From positions 10,168,001-10,232,000 of the forward strand of contig CM102290.1 in NCBI GenBank assembly GCA_046563655.1: a stretch of DNA of 64,000 nt, written 5' to 3'. The translations under genes and the position numbers were made by a program. This document shows, piece after piece, positions 1,572 to 64,000 of this stretch (its first letter is position 1; every line of letters begins with the position of its first letter). The stretch comes from Yuukianura sp. NJ FZ-2021 (lineage: Eukaryota). Under the pieces are notes generated by a model, which was given only the letters and a program-made list of their open reading frames with translations, was not told the DNA's origin and did no database searches.

Positions 1572-1977
1572 CTATTCTTCCGTTACTATTTGTCGTACGT
1601 CGTACACGTCGTGTGGACTTGTCGCGGCAGACTCAAATACCTCACCATCTAAAGGTGGCACCCTCTTCCCAAACCTAAAAAAATGTGACACTTAAAATTT
1701 ATTTTAAAAACTTTTTTTGTTGTAAATTTTTGAATTTTGAAAAATTGTTGAACCTATTCCTCGATACTGTCGCGTAGTAGCGTGCTAAAGCTCCTAGGTA
1801 GGTTTTGAGTTCTTCTGGCGACGTGAAGACCCGCGGTCTTTGCGGCTTCTCCAGGTTTTCAATCTCCATGCTGGACAGCATCTCTGCGTGCGCTCCGTTT
1901 GAATTTTTTAAATATACCAGGAGACTGAACACAAGCACCACCCCAACACCGACATGCAGTCCAGAACCCATTTTCAT
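1572..1977 (-). CDS. NPF: Neuropeptide F (NPF/NPY family, NPF2-like) precursor, 108 aa; exons 1977-1754 and 1674-1572
   Basis: Signal peptide MKMGSGLHVGVGVVLVFSLLVYL...AHA, then EMLSSMEIENLEKPQRPRVFTSPEELKTYLGALARYYATVSRNR|F-GKR and a C-terminal spacer ending IVTEE*. A 79-nt GT-AG phase-2 intron (1753-1675) splits the last Arg codon, the intron position conserved in NPY/NPF genes. GKR is the amidation/cleavage site. Confidence 0.93.
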
Positions 1978-2367
1978 CCCGCGATGCTTCTCCGTTCCAC
2001 CTTTGGCTCGGCGGAAACACAGAGTACAGCTACATATCCAAATAACACACGTTTGAGCAAATTTTGAAAAAAAAGAGAGTTTCTGAACAGATTTTTTTTT
2101 AAACAAAAGTTGAACAGGGTTTTGAGTTAGTAATTAGGACGTAGCGTTTGAATGAACTTGAAGACTATGAAGAGGGCAGTAGAACTTCAGAAAAGGCAAA
2201 TACTTTTTGGCTTTTTAGAATGTGTTAGTGTCCTGAGCCTTTTCTGTTTTTGAAAAAAATGTTTTTCCCGGATGGTTCTAATCATAGATTATATTTAATT
2301 AAAATCTACAATCTACAATCTCAGAAGGTAACGCTTTCCCTGGAATTTGATTCTGAAATTTGGTTTG

Positions 2368-22100: not shown

Positions 22101-23935
22101 CTTTTGTAGAACACTGAGATGAATTGGAAGGTCATTGACCCTGGGACAGCGTGACCCCTTGAGCAGCAAGGTGTAGGGTAGGCAAGGGTTTTCACTTTTG
22201 TTCACTTGACCCTGTAGGGTCAAACATACACACACTCGACACAGACAAACACTAGAGTTGACCACAATCACGGTTGAGAGCCCAACTGTTAAGCCACACC
22301 CCCTGAGTCCAAGAGTTACTGGCACTTATGCGCAGAACTCTCTGGACAGAACCTAGCCTAACTTCCCTGCCTTGTTCACTTTGTTATTTTCACTTTGACC
22401 TTTGACCTTTGCCGAGTGTGATTCTGACCTTTGATCTTTGTAGCACACGCTGACTCTGGGTGGTCCGACACTGGGCTCTCTCCATGCCACCATTCCGCAC
22501 CTCCTCCCTTCACCATCAATGGCCTCACCCGTCGGCTCTGCTTGCTCTCAAAGCCTCGGAACGCACGCGCCCTGCTCCACGCTATTCGTCGCCAACCTCG
22601 GGGCATTCGTCACGGAACAGGAACTCAAAGACATCTTCGGAAGGTGAGCGCCATCTAGTGTCTTTGCGGGGAGTTTTACGAGAAATGCCACAAGAGGGCT
22701 TTGGTCAAAGCTAAGGAATGTCGAGTCGTGGTCTAGCGTTCGAATCTCAGTTCAATCACACCTAAAAGCCGTTTAATTCTTAATTCTTAGTTTAATTATT
22801 AATCACAGTAGAACTAGTGGGTAATACTTCTATGCTGGTGAATGAAAAAAAAACTTGGGGGTTCGAATCTCGGTTTAGTTTTGCCTACGAATCTGATCAT
22901 TTCTGTACTAATCCTAACAAAATAACTTTCTTTTTGATACAAAGGGACTTAAAACGCAATAATTCCCAGAATTAGGAAAAGAAACTTGCAAGTCTGTGCT
23001 AGAGAGTTCGAATCCAGTGGCTAGTGTCAATATTTTTCAATGTCAATATGTTATTTTGTTTTGCTTGTTCAAACAGAGTTAAGAAAAGGGGAAAGGGGTT
23101 GTTGAGGTTCCCCGGGGTTTATTGATTGAAACGGAAGTGACCACGCCCAAGAAAAAGCCCCACCCAAATTAATCTTCCTGCAGGATGACCTTCGTGACAT
23201 TTGGAAGACGTTAATTAGAGCAAACGATAGAGTCTACAGGGATCCATTACCTAGCGACAATGTGTTTCCGGTGTAAGGCATTTGAATAGTAACGGCGTCA
23301 CTAATCACCGACAAAATTAACGTTAATTTTATATTTCCCAGAAATTCCGAACCTTTAATACCCTTTCTCTATGAATTTCAAATTCTGGCGGCCCAACCCA
23401 TAGCTCAAATTAAAAAAAAGTTTCCCCCAACCTTGAATCCACTACATTGCTATTTAACGTAACAACTAGCACCATCTAGTTAGCGTCTTCAGTTTAGTAA
23501 AACAGATAAAATAAGACAAAAGAATGTAAAATATTATAAAAAGGAATGATAATTTTGAATTGCAGTTTCCCGGGGTTCAGTCGTCTCCGTCTGCACACGA
23601 AAGGTGGCAGTCCCGTGGCCTTTGTTGAGTACATGGACGTGCGGTGCGCCACTCAGGCAATGGCAGCTCTGCAAGGATCGTTTCTGCGCTACTCCGACCG
23701 TGGCGGCATTCGAATCGAGTATGCCAAAACAAAAATGGCGGAAGTGAACGGTTCGAGCGGAAGTAGCGTCATTTTAGCAGCCACTGGAGCTGCCACTCTC
23801 AACGGCCACCACTCTCAGTACGACCATTTGAATCATGTAAATCAGACCCTTTCAACTAGCGTCTCGACTCCCCACCACATCTACCACCACCCACTCGCCC
23901 CCCTTCCTGAACGCCACATTGTGAATGCAGCCTAA
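13151..23935 (+). CDS. cpo: Couch potato (RBPMS/MEC-8 family RNA-binding protein, two RRMs). Exons 13151-13216, 20651-20728, 20881-20934, 21012-21074, 21181-21319, 21402-21547, 22444-22643, 23566-23935
   Basis: [73 protein letters not shown]...|[22 protein letters not shown] closely matches the insect Cpo RRM1. RRM2 reads [11 protein letters not shown]...[30 protein letters not shown]...[15 protein letters not shown]. All junctions are GT-AG and phase-consistent. Confidence 0.96.
18357..19050. mobile_element. ~694-bp non-autonomous TIR element (Mutator/foldback-like) in the long cpo intron
   Basis: ~180-bp inverted arms built of AGGTAAG-containing subrepeats. TSD GAACGAAA at 18348-18355 and 19051-19058. 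Termini GTAGCACGCCATT / AATGGCATGGAACC are shared with the 154-bp MITEs. Confidence 0.9.
19148..19520. repeat. Degenerate repeat with three GTAACC...CATGATGGTTA/GGTTAC units
   Basis: Similar motifs at ~19150-19220, ~19322-19365 and ~19468-19515. Confidence 0.45.
21868..22020. mobile_element. 153-bp MITE, Mutator-like, with 9-bp TSD
   Basis: Flanked by perfect CATCCAAAC direct repeats (21859-21867 and 22021-22029). Imperfect TIRs GGTTCCATGCCATTG / CAATGGCGTGCTTC. Reverse-complement copy at 2368-2521. Confidence 0.88.
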
Positions 23936-28198: not shown

Positions 28199-28753
28199 AT
28201 GAGGCAGATCCTGGTTATCGTTGTTGCGATTTTTCTCGTGACAGTGATCAGAGACGCTATCGGAGAACAGCTTACCGTCAGAACTCGAAGTGATACGCAA
28301 GACGTGAGCTCATTCACTTTTTTTTTCAAAATTAATAAAAGAATATTTTTGAATTTTTTTTTTGGTTGAAATTTTGAAACCTAGGCTGCTAATAGTGCAT
28401 CACCATTTTGGGCTGCTAGAGGGCGGCGGTCACTGTGTCCATACGACTCAGAACAGGACTGTGATCCACGAAACGGTACGTGTCCGATTTGGTCGAATTG
28501 TGATCCCATGAGCTAAAACTGTACTTTTGGTTTCTGCATAGAAATTGGTGACGAGGAAGCTTTGTCGCAGAGACGTGAAGCCCGGGAAGATCGGCGTGAA
28601 CGTCCTAGTTTGGGAATGGAGGAGAAGCGACTGCGCAGTCTGGGCGCTTTGTTTCAAGCATTTCTTCAAGGTCAACAGCAGCACATCAAGCGGCAGATGA
28701 CCTTTGACCCCAAAGCTGACCCCAACGTACCCTTCTACCCGGCGAGAGGTTGA
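28199..28753 (+). CDS. NTL: Natalisin precursor, 135 aa; exons 28199-28303, 28385-28475, 28542-28753
   Basis: Signal peptide MRQILVIVVAIFLVTVIRDAIG. Peptides ...SDTQD|AANSASPFWAAR-GRR and KR-QMTFDPKADPNVPFYPAR-G* both have the PFW/YxxR-amide natalisin C-terminus. Introns are GT-AG and phase-consistent. Confidence 0.88.
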
Positions 28754-30433
28754 ACCCCTTAAGGTCAACCTAACCTTACACATCCTTACTCATTGAAATT
28801 CCAGTAGTTAGCTTTAAAAGCACAATATACAAAACTTCAAAAAATTGAAAAAAAAAATCAATGCCGAAACCGGTATGAAAAGATACCACACAACTTGTAC
28901 AAATCTAGTTTTCACGAAATCAGACATTTTCTAAATTTTTCTTTGAAAAATCCAAGGAAAATTGAGGAACTTAAATTCTCCAAACGACCTGCAGCCATAC
29001 TGTTGCCACTTGCCACCCGTGGGCTACGATAGCGTTGCCACCTTTGAATTGGTTAGCATAAAAGCAAGCGATGGTGGGTATCAAGTGTGTTTACGTTGCA
29101 GCACCATGCAGCCACTCATAATAGTAGTCACAGCGTCGTTATACACTGTAAGGATACAAGGGTTCATTTTTCCGACCTAAAATCCTAATCCTAACCTTGA
29201 CAACAAAGTTAGAGTAAAATGGAAATTGAACTGGAGTTTCCGAATTGAATTTGGCAAATTTCCAAATTTAAATTTATAGTTTGACTTTTTATTTTTGATC
29301 CTTTGTTTATTTCGAAAAAGTTGCGTTGCTAATAGCAATTTCGATGACTGAACGCAACTGTACGGAACGAATCGGACTAAATGGTACAGCGTAGTTCAGT
29401 TATTAGTTAAAAGAAAAGTTGGAAAACAGACCAACCTGAACTTTAAATTAGTGTACATTTGACCACCAAATCCTGAAATTGTACCCAAAGTTCAATTTCT
29501 TTGATTTTTAATGCAGTTTGGATATGTACAGTGTTGCCGCTTTTCGTAAAAATTTTATTCGGGTGGGTCGCAGCCCGTGCCGACCCAACCTTCTGTCACT
29601 GCGACTTTGTCAATTGTACTAGCATTTTCTTTAAATATTTCGAATTAATGCTTTAGTATTTTTGCAAAACTAGTGACTGTTTTAAAAACTAGACAAAATT
29701 TGGCATCGACTGATATCAGATTCGCCAGCAAATCCGTTTGCCAACACTCGGAAATCAGGGATTGAAAATTAAAACTTGTACCATATCTTCGGCTACGAGG
29801 CCAAGGACGGAAACCCCAACGACGCAACGTTGCGAAATTACGTTTTCTGTTGATTAAAAGAAAGATCCACATCCACAGCTAGGCATTACGATTTCAATCA
29901 AAATATTTTTTGTTAATTTCGTTATTTTCTTATCAGTAATTAATTTCGCAGTAACGTAATAAGTTACGGGAACACACATTCCGCCTAATTTTCCCTGTAA
30001 CTGATTCTTGGTTGAGAAAATGCAATCAACAAAGGATCAAAAATAAAAAGTCAAACTATAAGAATTACATGCGCCATAATCCTTTTTCATTTTTTTTTGC
30101 GAGTGGGCAGACATACAAGGTTTCAGCTGTAGCAAAAGTATATTTGGAACAAAACTTTTTGGCCAAGCACAAGCAGGCTACGAAAGAGTCACTTATTTGA
30201 CACCTTCTACAAAGACTCTTGTTTTCCCAAGGGTCGAAACTTTTGCGTTGGTCTTCAAAGAAACTGGAGGTAGATTTTGAAATTGAATTTTCAAAATTTT
30301 GCAAAGCCAAAACCAAAGGATAGACACAAGGTTGTTTCTTGATGTGATGTTCCATAATTTCAAATCTTAATTACAAATTGGACAAAGTTCTACTGACACA
30401 TACGGTCAGTCCTTGGAGACAATGGCAGTCACC

Positions 30434-30548
30434 TATAAAACCAATGCCGCCACACCATCAGGTCCGCATTCCTTACAGATCCGTGTTTCGCAAAGGTCGT
30501 TGACCTCTACAACGCAGGTCACACATCATACATCTCTAGTACCAAAAC
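30434..30548 (+). promoter_or_regulatory. Putative kinin TATA promoter and first non-coding exon
   Basis: TATAAAA at 30434-30440, Inr-like GCATTC ~30 nt downstream, donor C|GTAAGA at 30548/30549. A second UTR exon is likely at ~30712-30779, and TTGCAG|GTCATG precedes the CDS. Confidence 0.55.
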
Positions 30549-30935
30549 GTAAGAACCTTCTTTTGGAAATTTTAAATTTCGAAATCCTTAAACTGCAAAT
30601 TTGGAAAACCAAACAATTGTTGTTCAAATGTAGTAAAATTCAAATTTTGATTCCTGAATTTCCACCTCGTATTACCTATATCTCACCTATTACCTAATTT
30701 TTATTCTGCAGGTCGTTGACCTCTGCAACTTTGGCCAAATTTCACAACCTTAGTCTTACCTCACCGATTTTCTCATACGGTAGAGAATTTTTATATAAAT
30801 TCAAAATTTCTAAAATTAGAAGAAAAAAACAAATGTAGACGAGACAAAATTTGCGATAGTAAATTTATACGAGAAATGTTTATCGATGACATCGTCTGAC
30901 CTCTGAGGTCTCAATTTGACTTAATTTTGCAGGTC

Positions 30936-31364
30936 ATGGTCGTGTTTTCCTTTTTCGTGTGGCTAGTGATGTCAACTGCTCTGGTGTCTGCTTGTTCCAT
31001 TGGCGCAAACGCCTCGAGCATACTGGGCAAAGAGATCATGGACCCAATGGACAACATGGAAGAGTCACTCATGTCAGCAGAGAGAATGTACGGAGCGGGG
31101 TTTGGACGGGGGATGGCAGTGGACGACTTGCCCACTCCTTACTACGGGGGTGGGGGTGGGAAACGGACGGGGTTTAACAGTTGGGGTGGGAAGAGAGGTG
31201 GGGGTGGGTCTGCAGATGACTTGGCCAAAATATACGGGCTGCTCAGTCGAAGATTCAATTTGGTCAGTGGAACTGGCGGGAAGCGATCCGTGCCAACGGA
31301 AATTCGAACGTCTGTTCCAGCCACACGGCGTGAACCACTCTTCTCTTCTTGGCGGGGAAAGTAA
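30936..31364 (+). CDS. Lk: Kinin (leucokinin) precursor, 142 aa, single coding exon
   Basis: Signal peptide MVVFSFFVWLVMSTALVSA. KR-TGFNSWG-GKR gives a canonical FxxWG-amide kinin; the second copy RR-EPLFSSWR-GK* is a variant. Confidence 0.9.
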   Translation: MVVFSFFVWLVMSTALVSACSIGANASSILGKEIMDPMDNMEESLMSAERMYGAGFGRGMAVDDLPTPYYGGGGGKRTGFNSWGGKRGGGGSADDLAKIYGLLSRRFNLVSGTGGKRSVPTEIRTSVPATRREPLFSSWRGK

Positions 31365-31890
31365 AGTGAAAGTTTACAAATTCAAAATTTTGAAATTGCA
31401 AACGTAAAGAAATATTAACTTGTAAGTAGAAGAACTCTATTCCTGGCGTGCTTAAAATAAAATAGAGAAACGACAATTTGAATTTGAAAAAAATTGACGG
31501 ACTGTTTGAACTTCACAATTTTATTCTACACTACTTCTCACTAACCTATGAAAGTTAGAATGAAATAAGCAATCAGATTTACATTTACCACAATGTAACT
31601 TTTACATGATTGCATTTTCCTGAAGGTAAGTCTACATGATAACACTTTACATTATGTGCATGAGCTTATATTTTAAGTCTGCCGCCAACCCACACTTTAA
31701 CCCTTCCCGTCATCTACATTTTCAAAATGGAGACTCCAGATTTACTACTTAGGTGAATGGGGACTTGTGATTGGCCATTTAAGTGTGCTCAAAAGTGCAA
31801 TTGAGTTAGGTTCACGTAGTTTCTTTCACTAAGTTAGAATAAAATTGAATCGAGGATATTTCCAGTCATGTAGAGGGGTGCAGGAGATCC

Positions 31891-32623
31891 CTAATGAATC
31901 GTTTGGAAACGTCCGGATTCCGAGTACTGTCCGAGTGATCGTTTCCCCCTGAGCCCCATGAACCCCGGGACTGGCTCTCTTTTTTCCCATGATGTAGCTG
32001 ATGACGACGACACTGCGGCTTCCTCTACGTCATCTCGGCCCCTTTTCTCTTCTTCCGAACCCCCCACCACCTCTTTTGACTCCCACCCACTTCCACCCAT
32101 CCCCTGCTCATTTTTCTTGCCTCGCATGCCCAGGAAGCCTACAGGCCCCTTCTTCCCACGCATTCCGTAAAAGTTCGTCGCTGCAGGAGCCTTCTTTCCT
32201 CGCATTCCGTAGAACCCGGCAGATGGCGCTCGTTTCCAGCCCAAGTCGAACTGGCTCGGCATCTGAAACAGAAAATCAATTGTAAGTAATGTAAACTATT
32301 ATAAATACAATATAATAAATAGAAGATGTATACATATAAAATTTCAGAGTAAATTAAGAAAAATTTCAAATTCGAAGAAAGTAAAATGAAAAAAGTTTTG
32401 AGCATAAGTGGGCAAACCACCCTCCGCAATCACCCTATTGTACCTCGTAGAAATCTTGGTAGTTTGGGTCCCCCATGCCCCTCAAGTATGGATTGATGAC
32501 TTTGTTGCCCTGTTGGTGTGCGGGGTCAAGTGCTCCAACTCTTGTGCCCTGCCCTTCCCCCAAAATGAGTAGGAGGGTGGAGATGCAGAGGGTGGACATG
32601 AAGGCAGAATCCGTCGAGAGCAT
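31891..32623 (-). CDS. Tk: Tachykinin-related peptide precursor, ~183 aa; exons 32623-32444 and 32262-31891
   Basis: Signal-like MLSTDSAFMSTLCISTLLLILGEGQG. Four FxGxR-amides are flanked by dibasic sites: APSAGFYGMR, APAATNFYGMR, GPVGFLGMR, EPVPGFMGLR. The intron (YE|MP) is phase 0 GT-AG. Confidence 0.95.
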
Positions 32624-45730: not shown

Positions 45731-48700
45731 ATGGAGAGTGGTGCGTCGGAACTGATAGAAACTCATCATCTGACACCGATTGGTGGTGGAGGTGACGATC
45801 GTCATTCGTTTGTGTCCAATTCAATTATCTCCTCGGTACAATCATCGTACACCTTCTCTTCGGTGTCAGCTGTATCTTCAGTCGGAGGAAAAAGCACCTT
45901 GGTCAAGGACTCTCCTCCGGACCTACCAAAGTTACTTTCCAAAGACACTTACCACCATCATTTCCAGTCAGCTTCGGTTATCGTCGAGAGTAAGTGACAT
46001 AGGAACACAAATACAATTCATCAGAAATAGTCACCAGTACCATCATGCAAGTATTTACTGACCACTCATCTCTTGATTCCTTTCCAGACGGATTGTTTAG
46101 TTCTCGATCTGAACCCAATCTCCTTTCGGCTGCTGCTGATCAAGGAAGCAGTGAAGGCTCATCTGCACTGCAACCACCACTCCATTCCGCCAGTGGAACA
46201 CCGATGTGCATTAAAAGGGGACCAGGGAGACCACGCAAGGACGGTGCTTCTGCATCCAAATGTTCAAATTCATTAAATAAGTTTAAGAAATTTTGCAGGT
46301 AAACAATCGCTGGATCTTCAACTAAACATTTGCATCCTACATTATGAAACTTTGGGGATTGATCTTTGATTTTTTTTTCAGTGGAAACTATGTCTCAGGA
46401 AATGTACGAGGAGTTCGAGGTAGCCGAAAGAAGCTGGACTGTTCATCGCTGCCTTTCCCTAGCAGTGGTGGCAGTTTGTCTGATTTGGGAATAATCGATG
46501 GAGACTTGGGGAGTTTTACAGAAGACACGATGGGGTCTGATTCCAGTAGTGTGGCGTCTTCCTTTGACAAATTATTAGAAGATTTCACATTCTCCGAGTT
46601 ATGGTTAGTTCAATACTTTCGAGACTCTAAGAACTCACTAATTAAGCAATCAATGGACCGTGATTGATTCACTACTAGTACCTTGGCATCCAATATTTTC
46701 TGAAGTATCATTACACTCTCGCGAACATACATGAAAACCTCCCTAGTACTCAAGGGGGTCTCCCGACCCTACCCAAGGGGGGGTCTCCCATTTTTTTTGT
46801 CGATTTGCCGGCCTGCGGCCGGCAAAACGACATTGGTTTGCGTTCATTCCCGACTTTTTGGAAGCAAACGCCGACATACTTCAAACGTCATAGTGTGTTG
46901 TGGGGGACGCAATATTCGCGCCGTAGGCGCGAGCAAATTTTGAATCTGGGATGGTGAAAACGATGCGGAGACCCTTAGATTTCATTGGTGACGTTGATTT
47001 GCGCCGTAGGCGCCCGAAAATTTTGAATTTAGAGAGGCGAAAACGAAGCGGAGACCCTTAGATTTCATTGGTGACGTTCATTTGCGCCGTAGGCGCCCGA
47101 AAATTTTGAATTTAGAGAGGCGAAAACGAAGCGGAGACCCTCAGATATCATCGGAAAGTAGCGATCGCGAGAAAATTTTGAAAATTGGCACAAAAAGAAG
47201 CGATTTGGGAGACCTCTCGGTTTGTCGGAGGTCAAATTTGTGTAATCAGAGGGTCGGGTGAAATTTTTTGTCGGGGGGTCTCCCCTTGGGCCTTCGGCCC
47301 AAGGGGGTCTCCCCGATATACTTAGGTGGGAGGTTTTCATGTATGCTCGCGAATCAACTAATACTGAAGGTTATATGAGTGTTTGTTTACACTTGATGAT
47401 GGTTTTTTGTTATTTCAGGCCAGGGAAGGTTTGTGGTTTTTGCAACCTGAGTGAAAAGAGTATGTCTGGACAAGGTGACCTCCTGCGTCTAGAGATCCCA
47501 GTGGGCTTTGACCCTTCAGCTATTCTCAAGAAATTGCTTGAAGGAGCTAGAGAGATTTCCGACCCTGACAAGGCTTCCATGAAAGAGCTACTGGCATCTA
47601 GGAAGGCAAAGGTCGCTGGCAAAATTAAGTAAGAAAGAAAACTTTAGCAAACTTTTTCACTTTTTAGTACTGTTGTAGTAGTAGATTATTGTTTACTTGC
47701 AGAAGACTCACATCACAAGGGAGCCTGGAGAGCACAAATGATTCCATAGAGGAAGTGGTTGGTTACCCCGAAGAAATAGACATGAGTCTCGTTTTCGAAC
47801 AGCCCGCGGGTTAGTTGCTAGTTGCAGAAAATTGATTCTCCGAAGTTTATGGTTGTGTTTTGTTAGTAATCGGTTTTGTGTTGTGGTTTCAGGGCACTTT
47901 TTTGTGCACTCGGGATGTGCTCGATGGTGTCACAATGTTATCACGGGAGACAAGTCGTCGTCGTCCTTTGAAAACTTGGAAGTGGAACTGGTACGAGCCC
48001 TAAGTCATCGATGTAGTCACTGTGGGAATTTTGGTGCCGGCTTAGTATGTTCCGTTCCAGATTGTGTCAGTCTCCTTCACCTTCCCTGTGCCGCTGCCAG
48101 TGGAGCATTTCAGGAGGCGACGTCTCTCAAAACAGTTTGCTCCTTGCACCTCGACATGGTTGTTTCTCTTGGTACGCAGTTTAAATTATACCAAGCATTT
48201 TTTAAAGATTCGCTGCTAATTTTTTTTTCAAAAACGTTTTGATTTCGTTTTCAGTTGGCAACTCCTCTCTTTGTACCGTCTGTGATGAACAGACTAACCT
48301 CACTTCAATGATTATGTGTTCCACTTGTGGCCATCACTACCACACGGCATGCATGGCACTCTCCTCCGATCCAAGTGAGAAACCATCCTTGTACCTCAAT
48401 TGTTTACACGAGCGGTAAACATTGTAATGCTCGTGAATAACATTTCATAATTCTTTGTGAAGGTATTCGACCAGGATGGCAGTGTCCAGCTTGTAAAATG
48501 TGTCAAGCATGTCGTCAACCTGGTGATGAGGGGAAACTACTTGCCTGTGAGGCCTGTGACAAGGCTTACCACACCTTCTGTCTACGACCTGCCTTAACCT
48601 CTCTTCCCAAGCACAGTTGGAAGTGTAAAGTGAGTCAAATCGGAGCTGCAACCAATTTAAATTTTGGATAAATTCACAATTTATTGGTATTGGTAAAATA

Positions 48701-51700
48701 ATTTTGTTTTGAAAACTTTCAGATGTGTCGTGAATGCTCAGACTGTGGATCTCGAACGCCTGGATCCGGTCCTTCGTCCCGGTGGCACGGCAACTTTTCT
48801 ATCTGCGACTCATGCTACCAGCAAAGGAACAAAGGTCTCGCTTGCCCTCTCTGTGGAAAAGCCTATCGACACGTTGCTCAAAAGCTTATGCTTCAATGCC
48901 ATTTATGCAAAAAGTAAGTACAAACAATTAACTTCTCTTTACTCGTGGTAGTTGGTTGGCTCGTTTGTCGTTTAGAGACATAGTTGTTACACGAAATAAC
49001 TGCGTTTTCAAACACAATGGTCGTTCGTTAGCTTATTCTTGAATTTACTCACAACTTGACAACGAAAAATCACAACTACCTAATCTATTTCCGTTAAAAG
49101 TTAGATTCATGATGATTCACTGATTATTGTCCATGGGACACGAGGATTATATATATGACAGAAGTATTTAGTCCTGTGCGTAATATTTGGGAAATAACTG
49201 TGTGGCGGTTTTGGCTAAATATTTATTGATTACCCCGCGACGTTAATACTAATTAATTAATTATTTCTAGACAAAAGTATTTAAATATTTCCTAACTTTT
49301 TTGAAAATATTTCTGTCATGTGAAATTGATATCGAGTTGTATGGTGATGCTACTATTGTCCTCAAATAGCTTGCGAGGGAATATACTACTTGGGTGGAGG
49401 GAGAACAGTTTTTTTTCGATGGCGGGAAAAGAAAACATTTGAATTTGAGGTCTTCTTGTCAAATACTAAAAACAAAACTCTCACTCTCTCTCGCCTCTTG
49501 TTTGTTTTGTCTTTTTTTTCGACTGTTTAGTTTAGTGTTGTTTATTTGTTTTCAACAATCAGCAGTGAACATTGTTTTTGTTTTGTTGAGGTACGTTCAC
49601 GGGTCCTGTGATGCCAATGCTGAGTTGAGCACTTACCAGTTACGGAAGGAACTCTACCCGGACTACGAGTACATTTGTCCAGTTTGCAAGGCTGGAGGGA
49701 ATTGTAACGCCGTTGTTGCTGGAGGAGGGAATCTACGTGCACTGTCGTCTACTAGCAAGAAATCGTCGGACAAAGACGTTTTGTCCACTTCTGAATCCAA
49801 TTCTCTTATTACCAGTAACTTTGCACTCTCACAAGATTCTCTCGTCTTTATGGAAGAGGACTCAGCTGGAGCGACAGAATCTGGCATTGATCTCATCTGG
49901 TCTGACAAGGTAAGCTGTCTGGCTATTTGCCTGAACATTATCTAAACATTTATATCCAAGATCTACAAGTGTATTTAAGAATTCTTAAAGTACTAACTAG
50001 TATTTGACAGTTTGGGAATTGACCAAAATTGTTTAAATCGTGAATCATTCATTATCTAATCACTGTTGAATTTCATCATGGTTTGTCATTGAAATCAATG
50101 TTACAGCGATAGGAAGTGACTACCTTTTGTGAGTTGTTGTAACTTTTTTGGGAGGGTAATTTTATTGTTTGTGGTCAAATGGATATTGATACGGATTCCT
50201 ATTGTTTGAATCTTTTAGGTCAGAACTGCCTCGGTAGTCCCGTCTGAGTCTCCTCATACAATGCCTGTTACGACGCCTCCATCACTTCAGGCCTTAGCGC
50301 TTCCGCCTTCGTCGACTCCAGTACCAGCAGTACAACCCAAGAAGCGAAATGGAGCTGGTAGGCAAAAGAGTACGGAGAAGATGGTTGAGAAGGCTGCTGC
50401 TAAGAAAAAAGGAAAAGGGCGCGGCGCTGAATATGGTCGCAAACGAGGGCCGAAACCAAAGATGCGTGGAGTTTTTGGTGTTCCGGGCGTTGGACTTCAG
50501 GTAAACTTGAGTTTAAACAGTTTTGTAATCAATTTGTATTTGGTTTTTGAAACATTTTGATCGGTGACTTTGTATAATAATCATATGTGCATGGATTGTT
50601 ACAGAGGCCTTCGTCTGACGTTCCAAAGGGAGAGGAGGAGCCTGGTGTTGAGAATCGTCTAGTTTTGTGTTCATCCAAAGATGAGTTCGTGTTGGAGCAA
50701 GACGTGTGTGTCATGTGTGGAGCATATGGGAATGACCTTGAAGGGCGACTCATTGCTTGTGCACAGTGTGGCCAATGTTATCATCCGTACTGCGTCAATG
50801 TCAAGGTAAAACGGATTATGCATTGTCTTAAGTTTTAATTGTTGGTTAGTTGTAATATGTTGGTATAATTTGTTCTCTTGTGGGGTTCAGGTGACCAAAG
50901 TAGTGCTGGAAAAAGGATGGCGCTGTCTGGACTGTACCGTGTGTGAGGGTTGTGGTCAGCGACACGACGAAGGCCGACTCATTTTGTGTGACGACTGTGA
51001 CGTATCCTATCATATCTACTGCATAAACCCACCGCTTGAGGTTGTACCGCAGGGGAACTGGAAATGCAAGTGGTGTGCAGTTTGTACGTTATGTGGATCC
51101 AATGACCCTGGAGTCAATAGTAGTTGGCACCAAAATTATACACTATGTGGACCCTGTAATTCCCTCCACTCTTGTCCAGTCTGTTCGGCGGAGTATGCAG
51201 AGAATGAGCTTATAATCAAGTGTCAAAATTGTGATCGGTAAGAAATTCAGTTTTTAAGATATTATAAGAACAACTAATGTGAAATGTAAGGGTTACTAAT
51301 ATGTTTCAATTTGTTTGATTCAAGATGGCTTCATGGCTCTTGTGATGTAATTTTGACGGAAGAGGAAGCCGAAAAATGTGCCGATTTCGGGTATCAGTGT
51401 ATTCTGTGTCGTCCGCGAGAGATTCCACCGCCTCACCTTCTTCCTCCTCCTCCGGTTTTGGCCAAACTTCCTCAAAAAAGTCCAGGTTAGTATTTTCCAT
51501 TGAATATTGTTATATTTCTTTGCTACATAATTGATTTTGTAACTTTTATGAGAATTCATGTATTTATACTTGCAGAGTGTTCAAGATCTCGCTCATCCTC
51601 TAATCATGTTGTTGATGGAGTTTGGCTGTCGAATAGTGGGATGTCACATATCAGATGTTTGTCGTTGGACCAACCAAGAAAGAAGAGGAAGAAGTTGTCG

Positions 51701-54700
51701 AACATTGCTGATATGGAGGCAGGGATTCTGGAAGCAATTGAGTCAGTAGTTTCTGGTGCAGCTAGTCGCAATCGTAAGGAATAATACCTTTTTGTTTCAT
51801 TACTGTTTTACAGTCAAAATTTCTTGTAAGAAACGATTTGTTCCGTGGCCTATTTAGATTCGGAGGGAGAAGATAGTCAATCAAGGGCTGAGGATAAGGA
51901 TGATTCCGACAAAGGTATACAATTAGTGAAACATTATAATGAACTCATTGACCATGAACCTGAGTAACTGCATTACTTGCTTACTTGTACCAACAGGGAA
52001 GGACGGTAAGAAGCGACGGACATTACAGAAGTTCGGTGTTGGGGGTTTTATTGCGAGGCTGCGAGGTCCCCGTTTCAAAGACGAGGACTTGGACATGGAG
52101 ATTCAGAATGGTGGGCCTCTTGAGCAACCCCTGGAGAAACCAAAGCGTAAACCCTCGAGGCGAAAAACGAAGAGCAAATTGATAGAATGCTTCCCGGCCT
52201 ATTTACAAGTGAGATTTTATCAGCTTCTTAGAAACAAAGATTAGAAATTATTAACGTTAACTTTTGTGTGGCGTTACAGGAAGCATTTTTTGGGAAGGGT
52301 TTGCTGGATTGTCAGTCACTGAAGGAAGAAGTTAGTGGTGCTACAGCCGGAGAGGATGACCTTGACGTCGAGTCTGTCAACCAAGTTTCCCACGAGAGTA
52401 CAATCAATTTATCTGCTGAGGACATGAGTCTCTTTGAAGGCTCCAGCAGTGAGTCGAGGAAGGAGAACGTGAAGGTCAGCGTAAATGTCAAGAAGGAAAC
52501 ACCTCCACCGCTGTTAGTCAAAACGGAACTTAAGAAAACTCCGAAACCAATTTCACAAAAGGTAATGACTTAGTTGGATAAACTATTTAACAAATTGTTT
52601 TGGTTTTGAGAGAAAAGATTGTTTGATTAATTTTTAGTCGAAGAGTTCTGGTGCCCTGCAAGAATTGTTGCCACTGCCTGGTGATTTATTGGACAATGAT
52701 TTAGTTGATACAATCATGAACGAGGACATGACAAAGGTGCCAGATGGAATTGATGACCTCGGTGGTGAGTCTATTGGACATTATTATTTTGTACTATTAG
52801 GTACTATTATTATTTAATATTTATTATTTGCAGTGACTTCTGGGTTAGTGGACGATTCAGAGTTGGGCATTGACCGGGCTGTTGGTGAAGCCAATCAGAA
52901 GGATTTGACGGATTTCCTCAGCTCCATAGACAGCGGTCTGCCGAGTATGGACAGCAAAGATGTGGAGGACATCTTCAAAGGAGTTCTCACGGATGAACCA
53001 GCAGCGGCCCCATCGTCAGGCCCACCCCTTTTCCCAATGGGAGGATCTCAACCCCCACCACAAGTTCCACCAATTCCTTCTCCTGTACCCATTCCAACCG
53101 GTGGGATTCTCATGCCACAAAATTTAAACGCTTCCGTCTCAGCACCAACAGGTTACACGTTGTTTTTGGATTGAAATGCATTCCAACTTTTGAGCCAACT
53201 GCTTTTGAAAATAATCTTATAGGCGATTTTGTGGATTTTAATTATTTTCAGTACAAGGAAGTCCAAGTCTGTCGAGATCAAATTCACTTCACAGTGTCCC
53301 GCAAGGCTTGGCATCTCCGCTCAACTTTCCGCCGCCATCTCCATATCATTCCGAGTATAGCAAGTACGATTACAAAGTTTTTTTTTAAGACATGGTTTAT
53401 GGTTTTCTAAATATTTCAAATATTTCTAAAATGTAATTTTTGTGAACCTGCAGTAGTCCTGCCTTCTCGGAGCCTCCTAGTCCTTGGCCAGCGGCAGTTG
53501 AAGGGGACGTAGAGACTCCAGGAAACTACAGTCAGAGGAGTATTCTCAAGTGGGAAGTGGATGAGGCTCTGGGTTCTAATGCAACCATCTCTGCCGTTCT
53601 CTATGCCAACATGAACCATCCAGAACTGAAGAGAGACCATCCAAGTAACTGCTTCTATTTCTTTCTACCTCTTTAATCTTTATTTCATTTTTCACGGAAA
53701 TTCGTTTGAGATAATCTAAAGTGTGAATTTTTTTTTCTTGTAGATTGGGCTGAGCGCTCTAAACAAATTGCAAAAATTTGGAGATCTCTTCCAACGGACA
53801 AGCGGGCTCCATATCTACAAAAGGCTCGAGAGAATCGAGCTGCGAGTCGCATGCAGAAGGCTCAGCAAGTGAGTGCAAAATTCTTTTAGTTTCTCTGCTG
53901 CGCAGGAGATTAGGTTCATCTCATGCGCAATTAGTGTTATTTGGACTTTTCACTAATACGGCTCATCAGCACGCAATACACTGAAGCACGATTCAATTTT
54001 AAATTAACGAAATTTTTAGTAATATTTTGAGCAAAATTAACTAATGTTTGCTTAGGGTTGTTGGGTAAAGTTAACTAACCTAACTTTAAAAGCCAGAAAT
54101 GAGAATGGGAAACTAATCCCGCCTGGTTTGCCATTGGATAATCATTATACTAGATTCCGCTAGACAACAAAATCTCACCAGCATCTTCACCGGGACAAGG
54201 TCAAGGGTCAGCTGATCATTCTCCCACTCCAACTGACTTTACTAAGGAGAAGGCGGATACTGGAAGTACTGCAAAGGGAACACGGTCAATTCCTGCTACT
54301 CCACCACCAACTCCAACTCCAGTAACAGTGGGAGGAGCCAAGGACTTTGTTCCAGTTCCTCCTGCGACTTGCGTCACGCCTACTTGTGTCACTAGTCCAG
54401 TCTCCTCTCGCACACTTTCACAGTCTCACCGCTGTTACATTGTTCACATTAACACGAGTCAAACGAGTCCAAGCAGTGGGCCGAGTCAAACCCCACCAAA
54501 ATTAACAAAAGTAACGGGATCCGTGGGGGTGGCACAGGGTGGGCCGCCAAAAGAGAAAGCCCCACCCCAAGAACCCAAATGCTGTTCAATGGCTGATCAA
54601 CAGATCCGCGTCCTCACTCCATCAGAAATCATGAGAACGCTGCCAGCATTGAGTACGGAGCCTTGCAGCTTCCCTCTGATGGTGAGAGACACTTGAGCTG

Positions 54701-57700
54701 GAACGAACTGTGCTTCCTTACCACAGTTCTCGAATTTTGAAATTCGCTGCATTTTCGTCGTCATTTTCTTTTCTTTAAGTTCAGAATTGTGTGGTTTTTG
54801 CGTGTTATATTTTTTGTTTACGTGTGAGTTGGTTTTTCATTTCTTTACGTTTATTTTGCAGAAGTTTGTCTTGAGGGAGGAAATTATTTCTTTGAAAACA
54901 ATTAGCATCCTGATACTCAACAGCATCAGAATGTCGTTGGATCATGGGCGACGACGACGTTCAAGGGTTGTTAGAAACGACAAATGGATACGGAAACATA
55001 CATTAGCTTGCTATATGAATTTATGTGCTAAATAACTGCATGTGCATGCGCTTACTGCAATGAGTTTCTTTTGAGTACTTGTGTCGTTTTGCTATGTCAC
55101 TAAAATCTACGAACATTTTGGCCACAAAGTTTGGAAGAGGTGTAAAGGTAGTTTATTGATTTTAAGGAGAGGAAAATAGGATTTTTTCGGTTTTCTGATT
55201 CCAAACTTTGTGGACAAGGAACCTGAAAATGACAATGCGTTTTTGCGATACTTTGATAAGGTGCATGAGGATTTTGAAAAATTGGGTTGTAGAGATCTGT
55301 TCTAAATTGCCGATGCATGTCTCCAAAAAACTTCTTATTCTATCTAAATGCTGATTTCTAATCTGAGTCTAAATGTTTTTAGGATCAAGAGAAGTTAATG
55401 CCACCAGTGAAGGCGACTCGGGGTGAGACGCAGGAAGAGAGGCACTGGAAGCAACTCCAAGCCTATCGCCAGCAGCAAGCACAACAACAGCAACTGGCGC
55501 TGCAAGAACAGCGATTGCAAGGTGATCCTAAGGATCATTTGCTCTCTCCTGGAAAACATCCTTTCCCATCACCTGGTAGGGCAAAGTTAGGAGCACCACG
55601 AATTTACTTGTTCTTGCACAAAATTTCAAAGAAAAGGTTTCTCGAAGTTTTCAGAAATTCAATCATGTTTGGAACAAGTAGATTGGTGGTATTGGTATTT
55701 GATAATTTGAACAATCCAAACTAGAAGTTTTATTTGAAGTGAGATACTTTACATCGTATGATTTGTGGGAGTTTTGGCTCAAATACTGACTTTTTGGACA
55801 CAGGAATACCAATGGTGCATCGACAAGGGAGTAACGACATGAGTCAAATGTCTTCGCAGATGGATCATGCGCGACTACCACTCCAAGTCTCTACAAACCA
55901 ACATGTAAGGACGGACTTACAGAATATTGGTAATAACTGGATTTTTAAACTGAATTGATTTGTTGTTTAGATGTCAGATGGCGGCCCTGGTGGTCTAGTA
56001 TCACCTCATCTTCAGTCAATGAACAACCCACGACAATCATTTCCAGGTCAACTGAACACGGGTCAAAGTCAAGCCACGCGAATGCGACCTCCTACTCTAG
56101 AAATGCCTCCACCTAGTCCATCTCCTCACTTCTCTCCTAAGCATGGCCTCAATACGCAACAACAATCTCCATCCCCTCTGCTCGCTCGCTCTCCGATGTA
56201 CTCACGTATACCTTACATGCACTCTCCACGACCACCTTTGACCTCACCATCAGCTGATCCATACGGAAACTCACCACTGACCCCACAGTCAGACCCGTAT
56301 AATCATCCACCCTTGACGCCACGCCCTGATAGCGATTCCAACTTTTCACCGAATGCGGCAGAGGGTTATGGACAGCAAGGTCAGAAACTGATGAATGATC
56401 AGTACATGAGCAGTGGGTCACCGAATGAGATGGATACCACGGGCCCACTAACCAGTCCTAGAACACCAGGAGGTGTCCCACCAGCACAGGAAACGAGACA
56501 GCATCTCCGTGATCTTCTCCAACGGCAGCAAATCAAGAAGATGGAGCAGGACGGATCACCAATGTCTTGTGACCTGGGGCCCAATGGGCAAAGGCCAATG
56601 AATCCTTGGCCCACTGGTAAGTACCTCTGTATGCACCCAAGATACTGACAAAAACAAAACCATAATTTGGGACCACATTACTAAAAAGTAAAATTTTATC
56701 GGGAAACTTCACACCAATGGATTTAATTTTTTAAATTGTAGATGAGTGGCAGAAGGGATCGATGGAAAGTGGTAAACATGCCAACCTGAGTCCGTGTTCC
56801 CCGATTTCCCAAATGCCTGGAACTCAATTTCGTCAACCTTTTATTCCTCAACATTCCCGAATGCCTCCGAACAGTGCCGGAGCGACGCAGATGCTACAGG
56901 GTAGGATACCGGGATCGGAATTCAGGCAGGTTGGACCACATTCTCCGCTCCCACAAGGGCAGCAGCAAGTTCAGGTGATTATTTAGGAAACAACAGTTGA
57001 CAAACTTTAACCGCAATTGAATTTTTCAAGCGAAGTGCAATAGTTTCATTCGCAATTTCAGATCGATCAACGCATGCGGGTTTTACTTCATCATCAACAA
57101 CTACAACAGTCACCTTCACAACAGCGTGGAATGAATGTCCATTTACCGAGGAACCCAGGGAATCCATTTCCGAACTTACAACAACAACAACAGCTGATCC
57201 ATCAACAACAAGGAATTGGACAGACTCAAGCGTCGTTTCAAGTGAGGCCGAATGGCAGTGGATATGATACCATGCAGCAACAAAATCAGAGGCTATGTCA
57301 GATGGGTGTCATCGGTAAGTTTTGTTTACAAAGGAATTAGGTTGGATTTTAGATACTTTTTGTGACATAAGCTTTGAAATACACAGATTCAAACGCACAA
57401 GTGACCTCGTCCATGCTGGCTCAGCAGTTAGGTCGACCACTTGCCCCTGGACGTGGTCTACAACCACCCCAGAGCCCTCTTCCAATTTCGCAGTGTTCAA
57501 ACATGCTTCAGATGAGCTCAGGAGGTTTGAGCGATCGTGTAGGATCAGATGTGATATCTTCAGAACATCAAGAATTGCCAGAAAGTGTAACAGCAGAGTT
57601 GGAGAAACTGGAGGAAGAGCAACATCGCGGAGATAACGGTGGAGGTGTGGAAGGAGATTCAGTAGAACTGGCAGACTTGGGAATGGATGACGACGAACTG

Positions 57701-60700
57701 CTGGGAATGGGAGCGGATTTCAACATTTTAGAGTACGCTGACCCTGAACTGAACATCGTCGTGGGCGGAGAGAAAACAAACATTCTGGATGATAATCTTG
57801 ATCTGGAAGAGGAGAAGGAAGAAGAAAAGGAAATCAAAAGGAAGGAAGAGGAAAAGTTAGTGCGGCTTAATTTCGATACAACTCTTCTAAAACTTCTACT
57901 GATTTTAAAAAAAACTTTTCATAGGTCTGAGAAGAAGGAATCCAACGGAGCCCAGTTCAATTCCAACTTGCCGCCAGTTCCAGTTGTCAGCGGAGCAGGA
58001 AACCAAGACACTTTGACAGGATTTCCTGCCCCGCAAGTACCGAAGCCCGAGTTTCCACCTTGCCCGCCAGAATTGGGCGCAAATATTCTCGGCCCACCAC
58101 AACCTCCACCATATCCAGTTCCACCCCCACCCTACCCAGGACCTGGAAGGCCAACTTCGGTAAGTCAACTTCCACTAAGTGGCATTACTTTGTAACCTAA
58201 ACATAACAGTGTGCCTTTTGTTCGTTTTCCCATACTTTTTGTTGGGTTTGAAACAGCTACGAGTTTTAATTTGAATTTTGAATGGCAGTTAGCTTCGTTC
58301 ATTGGCAGATTAATTCAAAGTGCTGGCAATGAACGAATTATTTTTGTAACCTCGTTTGAAAATTGGAACTAATCAGTAGTTTGACCTCTGACATTTTTTT
58401 GTGGCTTGTTGGCTCAGGTGGGAGTGGGAATTAGAAATGGTGGTGGTGATCTCAGCTTACAGCCTGTTCAGCCTGCGATGCATATGAGCATGATTTTCAA
58501 AAATTCAGTGATGGGAGGTGGGTCTGCTCCACCGCGGCGACCTCAACAACACCATCAAGTTAATCTTGCTCCCCCCATTCCTTCTCATGCTCCGCCTCCT
58601 CCTCCTTCCACACTGCCTCCTAATCAACGGAGGACTCTCCTCCTCCAGGTAAACCATGCAAGAATTAAACTTAATAAGCACGTCTTTACGCATGTCTTAT
58701 GTACCCTTCGGTTTTTGACTTTTCGAACCTGGACTCATTCCTTTAAAAAACAGTTAATAGGAAAGTGAGACTTAATTCTATGCCGTTTGTAAAGGAACAG
58801 CCGTTACTCCTTGAAGATTTGCTGGAACAGGAGAAGAGGGAGCAGCAGCGCCAAGGACCAATGCTGATCAATCCAACTGCAGAAGAACCACTCCTAAGCG
58901 ATTTTGATTTCGAGAGGCTCAAGGCCGACGTTCTATCTTCCAACAATTTGCCACCAAGCCTCTCTCCTCCGACACTTCCAGGTAACCATACGATTCCGAT
59001 AAATTTTTGTATCAAACATCGAAATCCTATGGTATATCTGTAGCTGCAATTTGTCGAGATTACTAAATGACATATTGATCATAAGTTTACCGGCTTATTC
59101 CTTTAGGTCAAGGTCTGCTGCCACCCCCTGCCCAGCAACCGATGTACAACAGGCATCCTATCCCAGCTCCTGCGTTGACAAACGTGAATAGCCTGCAACA
59201 AACCAGTCACATTCACCAACCAACAATGAACGAATGGAAATCGGATCCGCATAGGAAGACGGACATACACCATGAGAATGTTGGTATGCACGTTATGCCG
59301 GTTCCTGGAGGTAACCATGTGAATAATGCTCCCATGAGACTCCAAGTTTCTCTGATCCCGCCACCACCAGTTCCACCGGATCATCCCACTACAGACCAAG
59401 AGAGACAAATGGTGCTCCAATATGAACAATGGATTTATCATCAACAACAAGTTCTCAACCTACATCAGAAATACTTTGACGGGGAAGTCGCTAAACTCCG
59501 TAAAATCAAGAAGGTAAGACTCAGTCATTATACGATCAGCTGATTGTTTTGTATGATTTTGATCAATAATTTGATGCCATCTTTGGTTTATAGTCACTGA
59601 ATAGTAAGCAGAGGCAGCTGAGAAAGAACGGATCTGAACTGAATGAGAACGATGCTATGGAGCTGGAACGCGTTGTGAAGGAATTAGGTGGGATACAGAA
59701 ACAGCTGGATCAGGCAAGAAAGCAAACTCGCCAACACGGTACCATCATTCAGGTATTTTAAGGACCTTATAAAGGCCTTGAGAACAGTATTACGTTTTAA
59801 AATAAATTAGTACTGGAAACCAGCAGTACCGATGGCGACTTACTTAGATATGAAATTCTCTTCTTACTATTTACGCAGGACTATCAAAATAAACAGCAAA
59901 AGCGGAACCAGATTATGATGATGAACAAGCCAATGGGCCCTGGACCACTTCCACCGACCACCATTCGACAAAATATGGTCAACAATCAACCGATGCAACC
60001 TTCACCCATTGGAAATCCCAACCATTCTCCATTACACTCCACACCACAGTCACCGATGTTGAGTCCGGCACCAGCAATGAGTCCTCTCACCCAACACTCT
60101 CCCATGCCAAGCCCAATGGCACCAAGTCCAGGTTACCCATTTTTCAGTGTTTCCGACGGAATAATATGTTTGCATGTGGATTTTGTTTATAAGTTGAAGT
60201 GTTTTGATATTAGGACCTACCAACTCAAACGTACAGACTTCTCCAAGGGGTTCCCTTACCGGGGGAATGCATCACATGGATGATCGTCCGTTCAGTCCAA
60301 ACAATAACGACGGAATGCGGAGTATTCAATCCCCGGGAGGAATCATGACTCAAAATCGAATGCAAGGGCCACCTCAACATCGAAATATGGGAAATGGTCA
60401 AGGTCAAGGGATGCCTCAGAATGCCCCACAGCATGTTCTACAAGGGAGAGGGATGGGGATGCAACAGCAACAGCAGCAGAGGCACATGACATTTGTTCTC
60501 TCCAATGTTCAGCAGAGGATGAGGCCGAGCACTGGTTCCGACCAATTAAGGTTAGAGGAAATCTTCAGATATAAAAGTGATTTCGTGTTTAAGGAAATTG
60601 ACAAGACGTTTCTAATATAGAATGCAACGTTTCCAACGTCTTCCGATGGGCCAGGAAATGATGATGAGGGGACGGATGTGTTTACAGAATCCTCCGTTTC

Positions 60701-63700: not shown

Positions 63701-64000
63701 CATCGGATCTTCCCGGGCTAAGACTTCCCAATGTCAAAGAAGAAAATGGTGATGGAACAGAAGATTTCTACTTCTGTAGTTCTACGTGCTTTGTTCAATT
63801 CTCCCTGTCCCATGGAATTGCGCAAAGTGTAGAGGAAAAGGCAAGTTGGAATCCTCAAATGACCAATGAAACGCTCATTCGTACATTCTAACTAATATAT
63901 AGTTCTATATAAACAAAAATTGCAACTTTACCTTATTTTAGGCGAGTGCTGTAGTGAGACATCCCAGTGAGTCTGAAACTTCAGACACAAGTCCAAGTAA
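45731..64000 (+). CDS. KMT2C: Histone H3K4 methyltransferase KMT2C/D (MLL3/4; Lpt+trr unsplit), multi-exon, 3'-partial (FYR/SET domains expected beyond the window)
   Basis: N-terminal AT-hook KRGPGRPRKDGAS. ePHD (CGFCNL...FVHSGCARW...CSHCGNFGA) plus PHD fingers, and a second PHD cluster (LEQDVCVMCGAYG...CAQCGQCYHPYC; KGWRCLDCTVCEGCG...WKCKWC). FPAYLQEAFFGK motif, HMG box (KWEVDEALG.NATIS.VLYANMNHPELK...WAERSKQIAKIWR), LxxLL motifs (LRDLL, LLEDLL, LLKQLL), Q/P-rich regions and FCRHCDVV...FCSSTC. Confidence 0.96.
46719..47352. mobile_element. ~630-bp non-autonomous TIR element with three 83-bp tandem repeats, in a KMT2C intron
   Basis: 25-bp inverted ends TCGCGA(A/G)CATACATGAAAACCTCCC with 1 mismatch. 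Repeat units start at 46918, 47001 and 47084 (GCGCCGTAGGCGC...CGGAGACCCT). Several GC-rich hairpins. Exact boundary and TSD are uncertain. Confidence 0.82.

Follow-up and report, generated by a model that had tools for sequence, protein, structure and literature searches.

An Arg-for-Gly variant of the terminal kinin paracopy in a springtail precursor, probably a derived kinin with a natalisin- and tachykinin-like ending

The kinin (leucokinin) gene of the springtail Yuukianura sp. NJ FZ-2021 encodes, as its last paracopy, a predicted amidated octapeptide, EPLFSSWR-amide, in which position 5 of the kinin core is Arg instead of Gly. The gene lies in a stretch of 64,000 nucleotides (assembly GCA_046563655.1, contig CM102290.1, positions 10,168,001 to 10,232,000), hereafter the window. 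Judged from assembled contigs and related precursors, the Arg is a real, lineage-level variant of the terminal kinin paracopy and the peptide a new variant within a known family. We regard EPLFSSWR-amide as probably a derived kinin that acts on the kinin receptor. Structure-activity rules for kinins assume Gly (or Ala/Ser) at position 5; if the peptide stays a kinin-receptor ligand, the known motif would merely be widened. Together with a near-identical Gly-bearing orthologue, the natural Arg variant forms a ready pair for probing position 5 and a shift between receptor families.

Kinins share the core FX1X2WG-amide, in which Phe, Trp and the amidated end are crucial and position 5 (once given as X3) may, in non-insects, be S, A or G, as described in the kinin passages of PMC7913504; excerpts of PMC6692460 name the amidated Gly5 among the characteristics required for kinin activity. 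FxxxR-amide is the motif common to natalisins and tachykinins, with natalisin subtypes FxPxR or FWxxR by order (PMC4730192). Natalisin derived from tachykinin by duplication (sections of PMC6880623), and the corresponding parts of PMC7913504 and PMC6880623 deny any homology of leucokinins and their receptors with tachykinins. Our literature search found no paper mentioning the Arg form; the main text of PMC4770511 does not have it in any of its seven kinin/TKRP passages, the excerpted text of PMC5940834 does not mention leucokinin, and Additional file 1 of PMC4770511, with nine springtail kinin precursors, lay outside the search and may well show the ending. Arg-bearing relatives are already present, unannotated, in public collections.

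Table 1. The kinin precursor, its parts and the adjacent neuropeptide genes, in coordinates of the window
Feature	Positions	Strand	Basis or remark
Natalisin gene, paracopies ...SPFWAAR-amide and ...VPFYPAR-amide	28199..28753	+	Translation; placement of the exon 2-3 junction uncertain
Kinin (leucokinin) precursor CDS, 142 aa	30936..31364	+	Single coding exon (translation)
Probable signal peptide, about residues 1-19	30936..30992	+	Hydrophobicity; cleavage site placed by eye
Canonical kinin paracopy TGFNSWG-amide with GKR	31167..31196	+	KR upstream at 31161-31166
Second conserved amidation site, possible non-kinin peptide FNLVSGTG-amide with GKR	31254..31286	+	Alignment A1
Arg-Arg cleavage site (predicted) ahead of the terminal paracopy	31326..31331	+	R131 R132
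Terminal paracopy EPLFSSWR, predicted amide	31332..31355	+	7/9 columns (residues 133-141) invariant among four precursors
CGG (Arg, R140) at kinin core position 5	31353..31355	+	Translation; contigs
Amidation signal: Gly, Lys, stop TAA	31356-31358, 31359-31361, 31362-31364	+	Gly invariant in A1
Tachykinin-related peptide gene, four FxGxR-amide paracopies	31891..32623	-	Tail to tail with the kinin gene

The precursor (Table 1) is homologous to kinin precursors and has a hydrophobic N-terminus and basic cleavage sites. A splice-acceptor-like TTTTGCAG finishes 3 bases upstream of the ATG (30936), and in A1, an alignment of four short kinin precursors, the start Met lines up with the starts of the relatives P0039 and P0046. 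Mean Kyte-Doolittle values exceed 1.5 only in segments starting at residues 1-14, with a peak of 2.65. The TGFNSWG paracopy gives a weak match to the Pfam Kinin family PF08260 (11.8 bits, under the cut-off of 19.7). Pfam assigned no family to the precursor at E 0.1, and at E 10 sub-threshold Kinin matches appear in 3/4 short precursors. Matches from phmmer and profile searches include proteins named kinin or leucokinin-like, the neighbours in the ESM Atlas are generic neuropeptide precursors, and a PDB sequence search with the precursor returned 0 hits. At the second amidation site, G115 K116 R117 are invariant in A1 and the residues upstream vary; the peptide ahead of this GKR, FNLVSGTG in the window and LIGLGF, LSFNGN or LSFGGN in the relatives, is not kinin-like and is possibly a precursor-associated amidated peptide.

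The C-terminus reads R131 R132 E P L F S S W R140 G141 K142 stop, so that translation bears out the ending RR-EPLFSSWR-G-K-stop described in an earlier note on this DNA; the note placed the CGG codon correctly and its start, 31327, lies one base off frame and should be 31326. An RR pair also precedes the last paracopy in the relatives P0041 and P0046 and in 15/33 other terminal paracopies; RR sites are reportedly cleaved less reliably than KR. The calculated MH+ of EPLFSSWR-amide is 1020.53, or 1002.52 with an N-terminal pyroglutamate. Across the six frames of the window, a dibasic-FxxW-x-G-basic/stop pattern matches twice, both times in the kinin ORF; 100 block shuffles yield 0.01 matches on average. 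Its WRG form matches once, against 0/100 shuffles. When the back-translated motif was allowed up to two mismatches, the terminal paracopy was the sole site in the window.

The chance that the true codon is GGG and that CGG is a sequencing error or a rare allele is practically negligible: the two codons are one base apart, P0039 has Gly and contigs drop rare variants, against which stand the absence of any alternative letter at 31353-31355 in 4/4 runs and the matching Arg of two other precursors. Parts of the region occur in five runs, none of them recorded as RNA, and the Logan contigs of four, from two studies, were compared over 30800-31600. X1 (record 4, 31240-31600, depth 180) and X2 (record 11, 31284-31600, depth 155) show 0 other letters, and X3 (record 16) spans the entire compared stretch. 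X4 (record 22, 31287-31600, depth 8) has three other letters, at 31328, at 31449 and at one unlisted site; the change at 31328 is synonymous and keeps the first Arg of RR. A second X4 contig, of depth 3, exchanges Thr for Ala at 31272, perhaps erroneously. Runs X1-X3 come from a single sample, which may be the one assembled; X4 belongs to the second study and carries another organism label. A sequencing error, which the earlier note had entertained, is thus ruled out at contig level; contigs give the majority base only, so that a rare GGG allele could still exist. The agreement of the codon across runs and the Arg of two other precursors together mark it as a lineage-level variant. Elsewhere in the compared stretch, the X1-X3 contigs differ from the window at 30910, 30953 and 30956, the two coding differences being synonymous Phe codon swaps, which suggests another haplotype.

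A phmmer search of 1.84 billion representatives with the precursor returned 10 proteins, of which three, P0039, P0041 and P0046, align over all or most of it; P0049 is the P0046 sequence with a longer start and is not counted separately. We infer a springtail origin for all three. With the window precursor they make up four distinct precursors that are 30-58% pairwise identical and have a short layout in common: a signal peptide, one to three FNSWG copies, the conserved GKR and a terminal PLFSSW(R/G)G. Identity to the window precursor is 33-39%, and 33-36% for the two that bear Arg. These are P0041 (ENA), ending RR-ANTSPLFSSWR-G, and P0046 (JGI, NCBI, ENA; likewise P0049), ending RR-SKSPLFSSWR-G; P0039 (Logan) ends QRQ-EPLFSSWG-GK, with Gly at position 5. 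All four agree in P, L, F, S, S, W and the amidation Gly. Invariant columns number 7/9 in the terminal peptide, 8/10 in the canonical copy and 8/98 elsewhere, counts that are biased by the retrieval of the relatives via these same motifs.

The four short precursors form one branch with support of 100/99 against six or three other kinin precursors. Within it, the best tree places the window precursor beside P0039, which bears Gly (76/70, unstarred). The alternative in which the three Arg precursors group together also survives the test (p-AU 0.245; 7 rows, with the position in question masked), so that one gain of Arg, with or without reversion, and two gains are indistinguishable. Retrieval of kinin-like proteins gave 492 FxxW-x-G paracopies in 75 proteins among the best 8000 candidates scored, a set skewed to FNSWG-like sequences; four carry Arg at position 5, all of them terminal and all in the short-precursor group. 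With that group left out, Arg occurs in 0/477 paracopies of 70 proteins from the same best 8000 candidates, Gly in 433 and another residue in 44 (Ala 34, Ser 4, Asp 3, and Val, Asn and Glu 1 each). A metagenome scan with A1 gave 106 stretches that fit the pattern and one confirmed locus, on a 1.6-kb contig that carries no synteny information; this sole locus is a canonical multi-copy kinin without the Arg form. A single-sequence word search with the window precursor gave 19 candidates, none of which was scored.

By descent, then, EPLFSSWR is a kinin paracopy and by motif a non-canonical one, and the precursor is a kinin precursor by virtue of its TGFNSWG copy. F136 (core position 1) and W139 (core position 4) are invariant in A1, and G141 K142 stop forms an amidation signal from which the amide itself is predicted; core position 5, which would be Gly (Ala/Ser outside insects), is Arg. 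Insect kinins (FX1X2WG-amide, PF08260) resemble the peptide in Phe1, Ser-Ser, Trp4, the amidation Gly and the neighbouring canonical FNSWG-amide copy, and its RR-flanked terminal position is that of the last paracopy of many insect precursors (15/33). They differ from it at position 5, where the relevant parts of PMC7913504 give only G, A or S. At X1 and X2, Ser occurs in 110/477 and 341/477 kinin paracopies, respectively, among the best 8000 candidates, whereas Trp at X3 is preset by the search pattern.

The earlier note called the peptide a hybrid, and EPLFSSWR does formally satisfy both the FxxW and the FxxxR-amide patterns. The latter (F-S-S-W-R-G) fixes two letters only, and every kinin has Phe, so one Gly-to-Arg change is enough to meet it. 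The residues in between are kinin-like and speak against a hybrid. Tachykinin-related peptides have Phe at -5 and Arg-amide in common with EPLFSSWR, but their FxGxR-amide ending has Gly at X2, where EPLFSSWR has Ser: among 146 tachykinin-type paracopies from 37 proteins, X2 is Gly in 142, and Ser at X1, Ser at X2 and Trp at X3 are each found in 0. Natalisins likewise have Phe at -5 and a C-terminal Arg-amide, and mosquito FFSSR-amide copies have the same X2 Ser, whereas the subtype motifs FxPxR or FWxxR, with hydrophobic X1, are absent from EPLFSSWR. By a hand count of the 34/45 entries ending in FxxxR-amide in the accessible portion of Supplementary Table 5 of PMC6880623, 33 have a hydrophobic X1, none has Ser there, none has Trp at X3, and two mosquito copies have Ser at X2. 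The peptide is also encoded apart from the natalisin gene, which is a separate gene in the window; the neighbouring natalisin precursor likewise ends R-G-stop. Scored over its last four positions, EPLFSSWR reaches +5.5 bits on the kinin matrix and -5.2 on the tachykinin matrix, and the canonical TGFNSWG copy 14.9 bits on the kinin matrix.

Neuropeptide precursors are secreted, cleaved at basic pairs, trimmed of Lys and amidated from Gly. On the derived-kinin reading, Arg would have replaced Gly at core position 5 of the last paracopy in a short kinin precursor of springtail type. By known neuropeptide processing, this precursor would then be secreted and cut after RR, its final Lys trimmed and its Gly converted to the amide, releasing the 8-residue EPLFSSWR-amide alongside canonical TGFNSWG-amide. 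Such a peptide would be expected to act on the kinin receptor: it keeps Phe1, Trp4 and the amide, which carry kinin activity, and its one substitution falls at the core position that is naturally variable. It may be less potent than TGFNSWG-amide or otherwise differ from it in potency, and the natalisin/tachykinin likeness would be a by-product of the single substitution. In favour of this reading, the orthologue P0039 has the same EPLFSSW with Gly, and the terminal peptide is far richer in invariant columns than the sequence outside the two kinin motifs (7/9 vs 8/98). The inner residues and the matrix scores given above are on the kinin side, and position 5 is already other than Gly in 44/477 other paracopies (best 8000 candidates), terminal copies of two wasps among them. 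A stable-fly tachykinin activates a tick kinin receptor, as cited in the excerpts of PMC6692460, which shows a kinin receptor taking a tachykinin-type ligand. From Gly codons, Arg is moreover the most reachable change, with 6/24 single-base non-Gly outcomes. Arg is most simply regarded as derived, since it is confined to one small clade and absent from 70 other kinin precursors. Against it, a large charged Arg is found in 0/477 other paracopies and the score is 5.5 vs 14.9 bits (best 8000 candidates), and the retention of Arg in three precursors hints at a possible role that Gly does not fill.

One such role would be that of a tuned ligand within the kinin system, which would either act selectively on a duplicate kinin receptor or, by partial agonism or antagonism, modulate the response to the canonical peptide. 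We consider this unlikely; the Gly of P0039 means that Arg is not required across the whole group. What speaks for it is that the rest of the peptide is constant while the Arg is common to precursors 33-58% identical, and that kinin receptors have duplicated elsewhere, with four in Ixodes (excerpts of PMC6692460) and a local duplication in thrips (excerpts of PMC7570057).

There is also a slim chance that a change or broadening of target lets the paracopy activate a natalisin or tachykinin receptor under physiological conditions, which would make the kinin gene a two-ligand gene. Its ending matches FxxxR-amide, common to both families (PMC4730192), three divergent precursors carry the Arg, and two mosquito natalisins in the accessible part of PMC6880623 end in FFSSR-amide. 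Of the tachykinin receptors, that of the honey bee is promiscuous and that of Varroa responds to FWxxR natalisins (PMC4730192). Genes with mixed ligands have precedents in capa/pk (passages of PMC4770511) and in spider-mite TK/NTL precursors (passages of PMC6880623), and the kinin gene is located between the natalisin and tachykinin genes. On the other side, X1 Ser and X3 Trp occur in 0/146 tachykinin-type paracopies and 0/34 FxxxR natalisins from the part of the table counted, one orthologue has Gly, and the animal's own natalisin and tachykinin peptides are encoded next door. The Varroa natalisin receptor is more than 100-fold selective for its own ligands, and no mimetic activated it (PMC4730192). 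Given the promiscuous bee receptor, some cross-activity on a tachykinin receptor at high dose in vitro would be unsurprising and by itself no proof of a physiological role; gene adjacency does not bear on which receptor EPLFSSWR binds. If a switch had occurred in part of the springtails, one precursor would co-release ligands for two receptor families from a natalisin-kinin-tachykinin cluster, and a ligand would have been caught changing receptor family via one substitution, with the Gly-bearing P0039 as natural control.

It is improbable, too, that the paracopy is a weakened or inactive leftover whose position 5 drifts while TGFNSWG-amide carries the function. Wasp terminal paracopies do have odd residues at this position, with Asp in P0062 and Asn in P0068, and a change from Gly to Arg takes one base; the tree does not separate one gain from two. 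Drift, however, should not stop at Arg in 3/4 precursors, nor leave P, L, F, S, S, W and Gly invariant. The wasp peptides themselves, FFPWD-amide in Vespa crabro (P0062) and FFPWN-amide in Polistes fuscatus (P0068), mean that position 5 of the last copy varies in wasps as well.

Finally, the earlier note raised an intermediate form between kinins and natalisins or tachykinins, here one kept in an ancient three-gene array, which is very improbable: three genes within 4.4 kb and a kinin-tachykinin adjacency that may be shared with Bourletiella hortensis favour it, but Arg is limited to one clade (100/99), is absent from insect, crustacean-like and mollusc kinin precursors (0/477 among the best 8000 candidates; 70 other precursors without Arg), and the families are not homologous according to the review sections cited above (PMC7913504, PMC6880623).

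The gene neighbourhood is a separate finding, one that may outweigh the peptide in interest. The order described in the earlier note, with the kinin gene between the other two, is confirmed: natalisin (+), kinin (+) and tachykinin (-) genes all lie inside 4.4 kb, 28199-32623, the natalisin gene 2.2 kb upstream of the kinin gene. A literature search on synteny and gene clusters found no paper on such a natalisin-kinin-tachykinin cluster. A match of the tachykinin exon has 51% identity over 85% of the exon and clusters with an Orchesella dallaii protein. With two kinin, four tachykinin and two natalisin paracopies, the window agrees with the means for Collembola of 4 +/- 2.5, 3.6 +/- 0.47 and 2, respectively, in Table 1 of PMC4770511, and FWAAR, the ending of one natalisin paracopy here, is the commonest ending of Daphnia natalisins in the accessible portion of Supplementary Table 5 of PMC6880623. 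Between the convergent kinin and tachykinin genes, AATAAA occurs at 31456 (+) and 31525 (-); with these signals about 70 bases apart, the two 3' ends may touch or overlap. In the accessible part of PMC4770511, Additional file 3 enters scaffold s15217 of Bourletiella hortensis under both Kinin1 and TKRP2. This scaffold may represent two convergent transcripts merged in assembly, hence a shared adjacency; the double entry could also be a table slip or one precursor partly filed twice.

Further observations concern the remainder of the window. The natalisin precursor has a short Cys-rich stretch with four Cys (28430-28516) directly after its first peptide. A neuropeptide F gene exon lies at 1699-2133 (-), about 26 kb from the cluster (Pfam PF00159, E 7e-10), and an exon with an RRM domain at 23540-23935. 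Many exons of a large PHD-finger, glutamine/proline-rich protein, which we take to resemble KMT2C/D (MLL3/4-type), occupy 47000-64000 (+).
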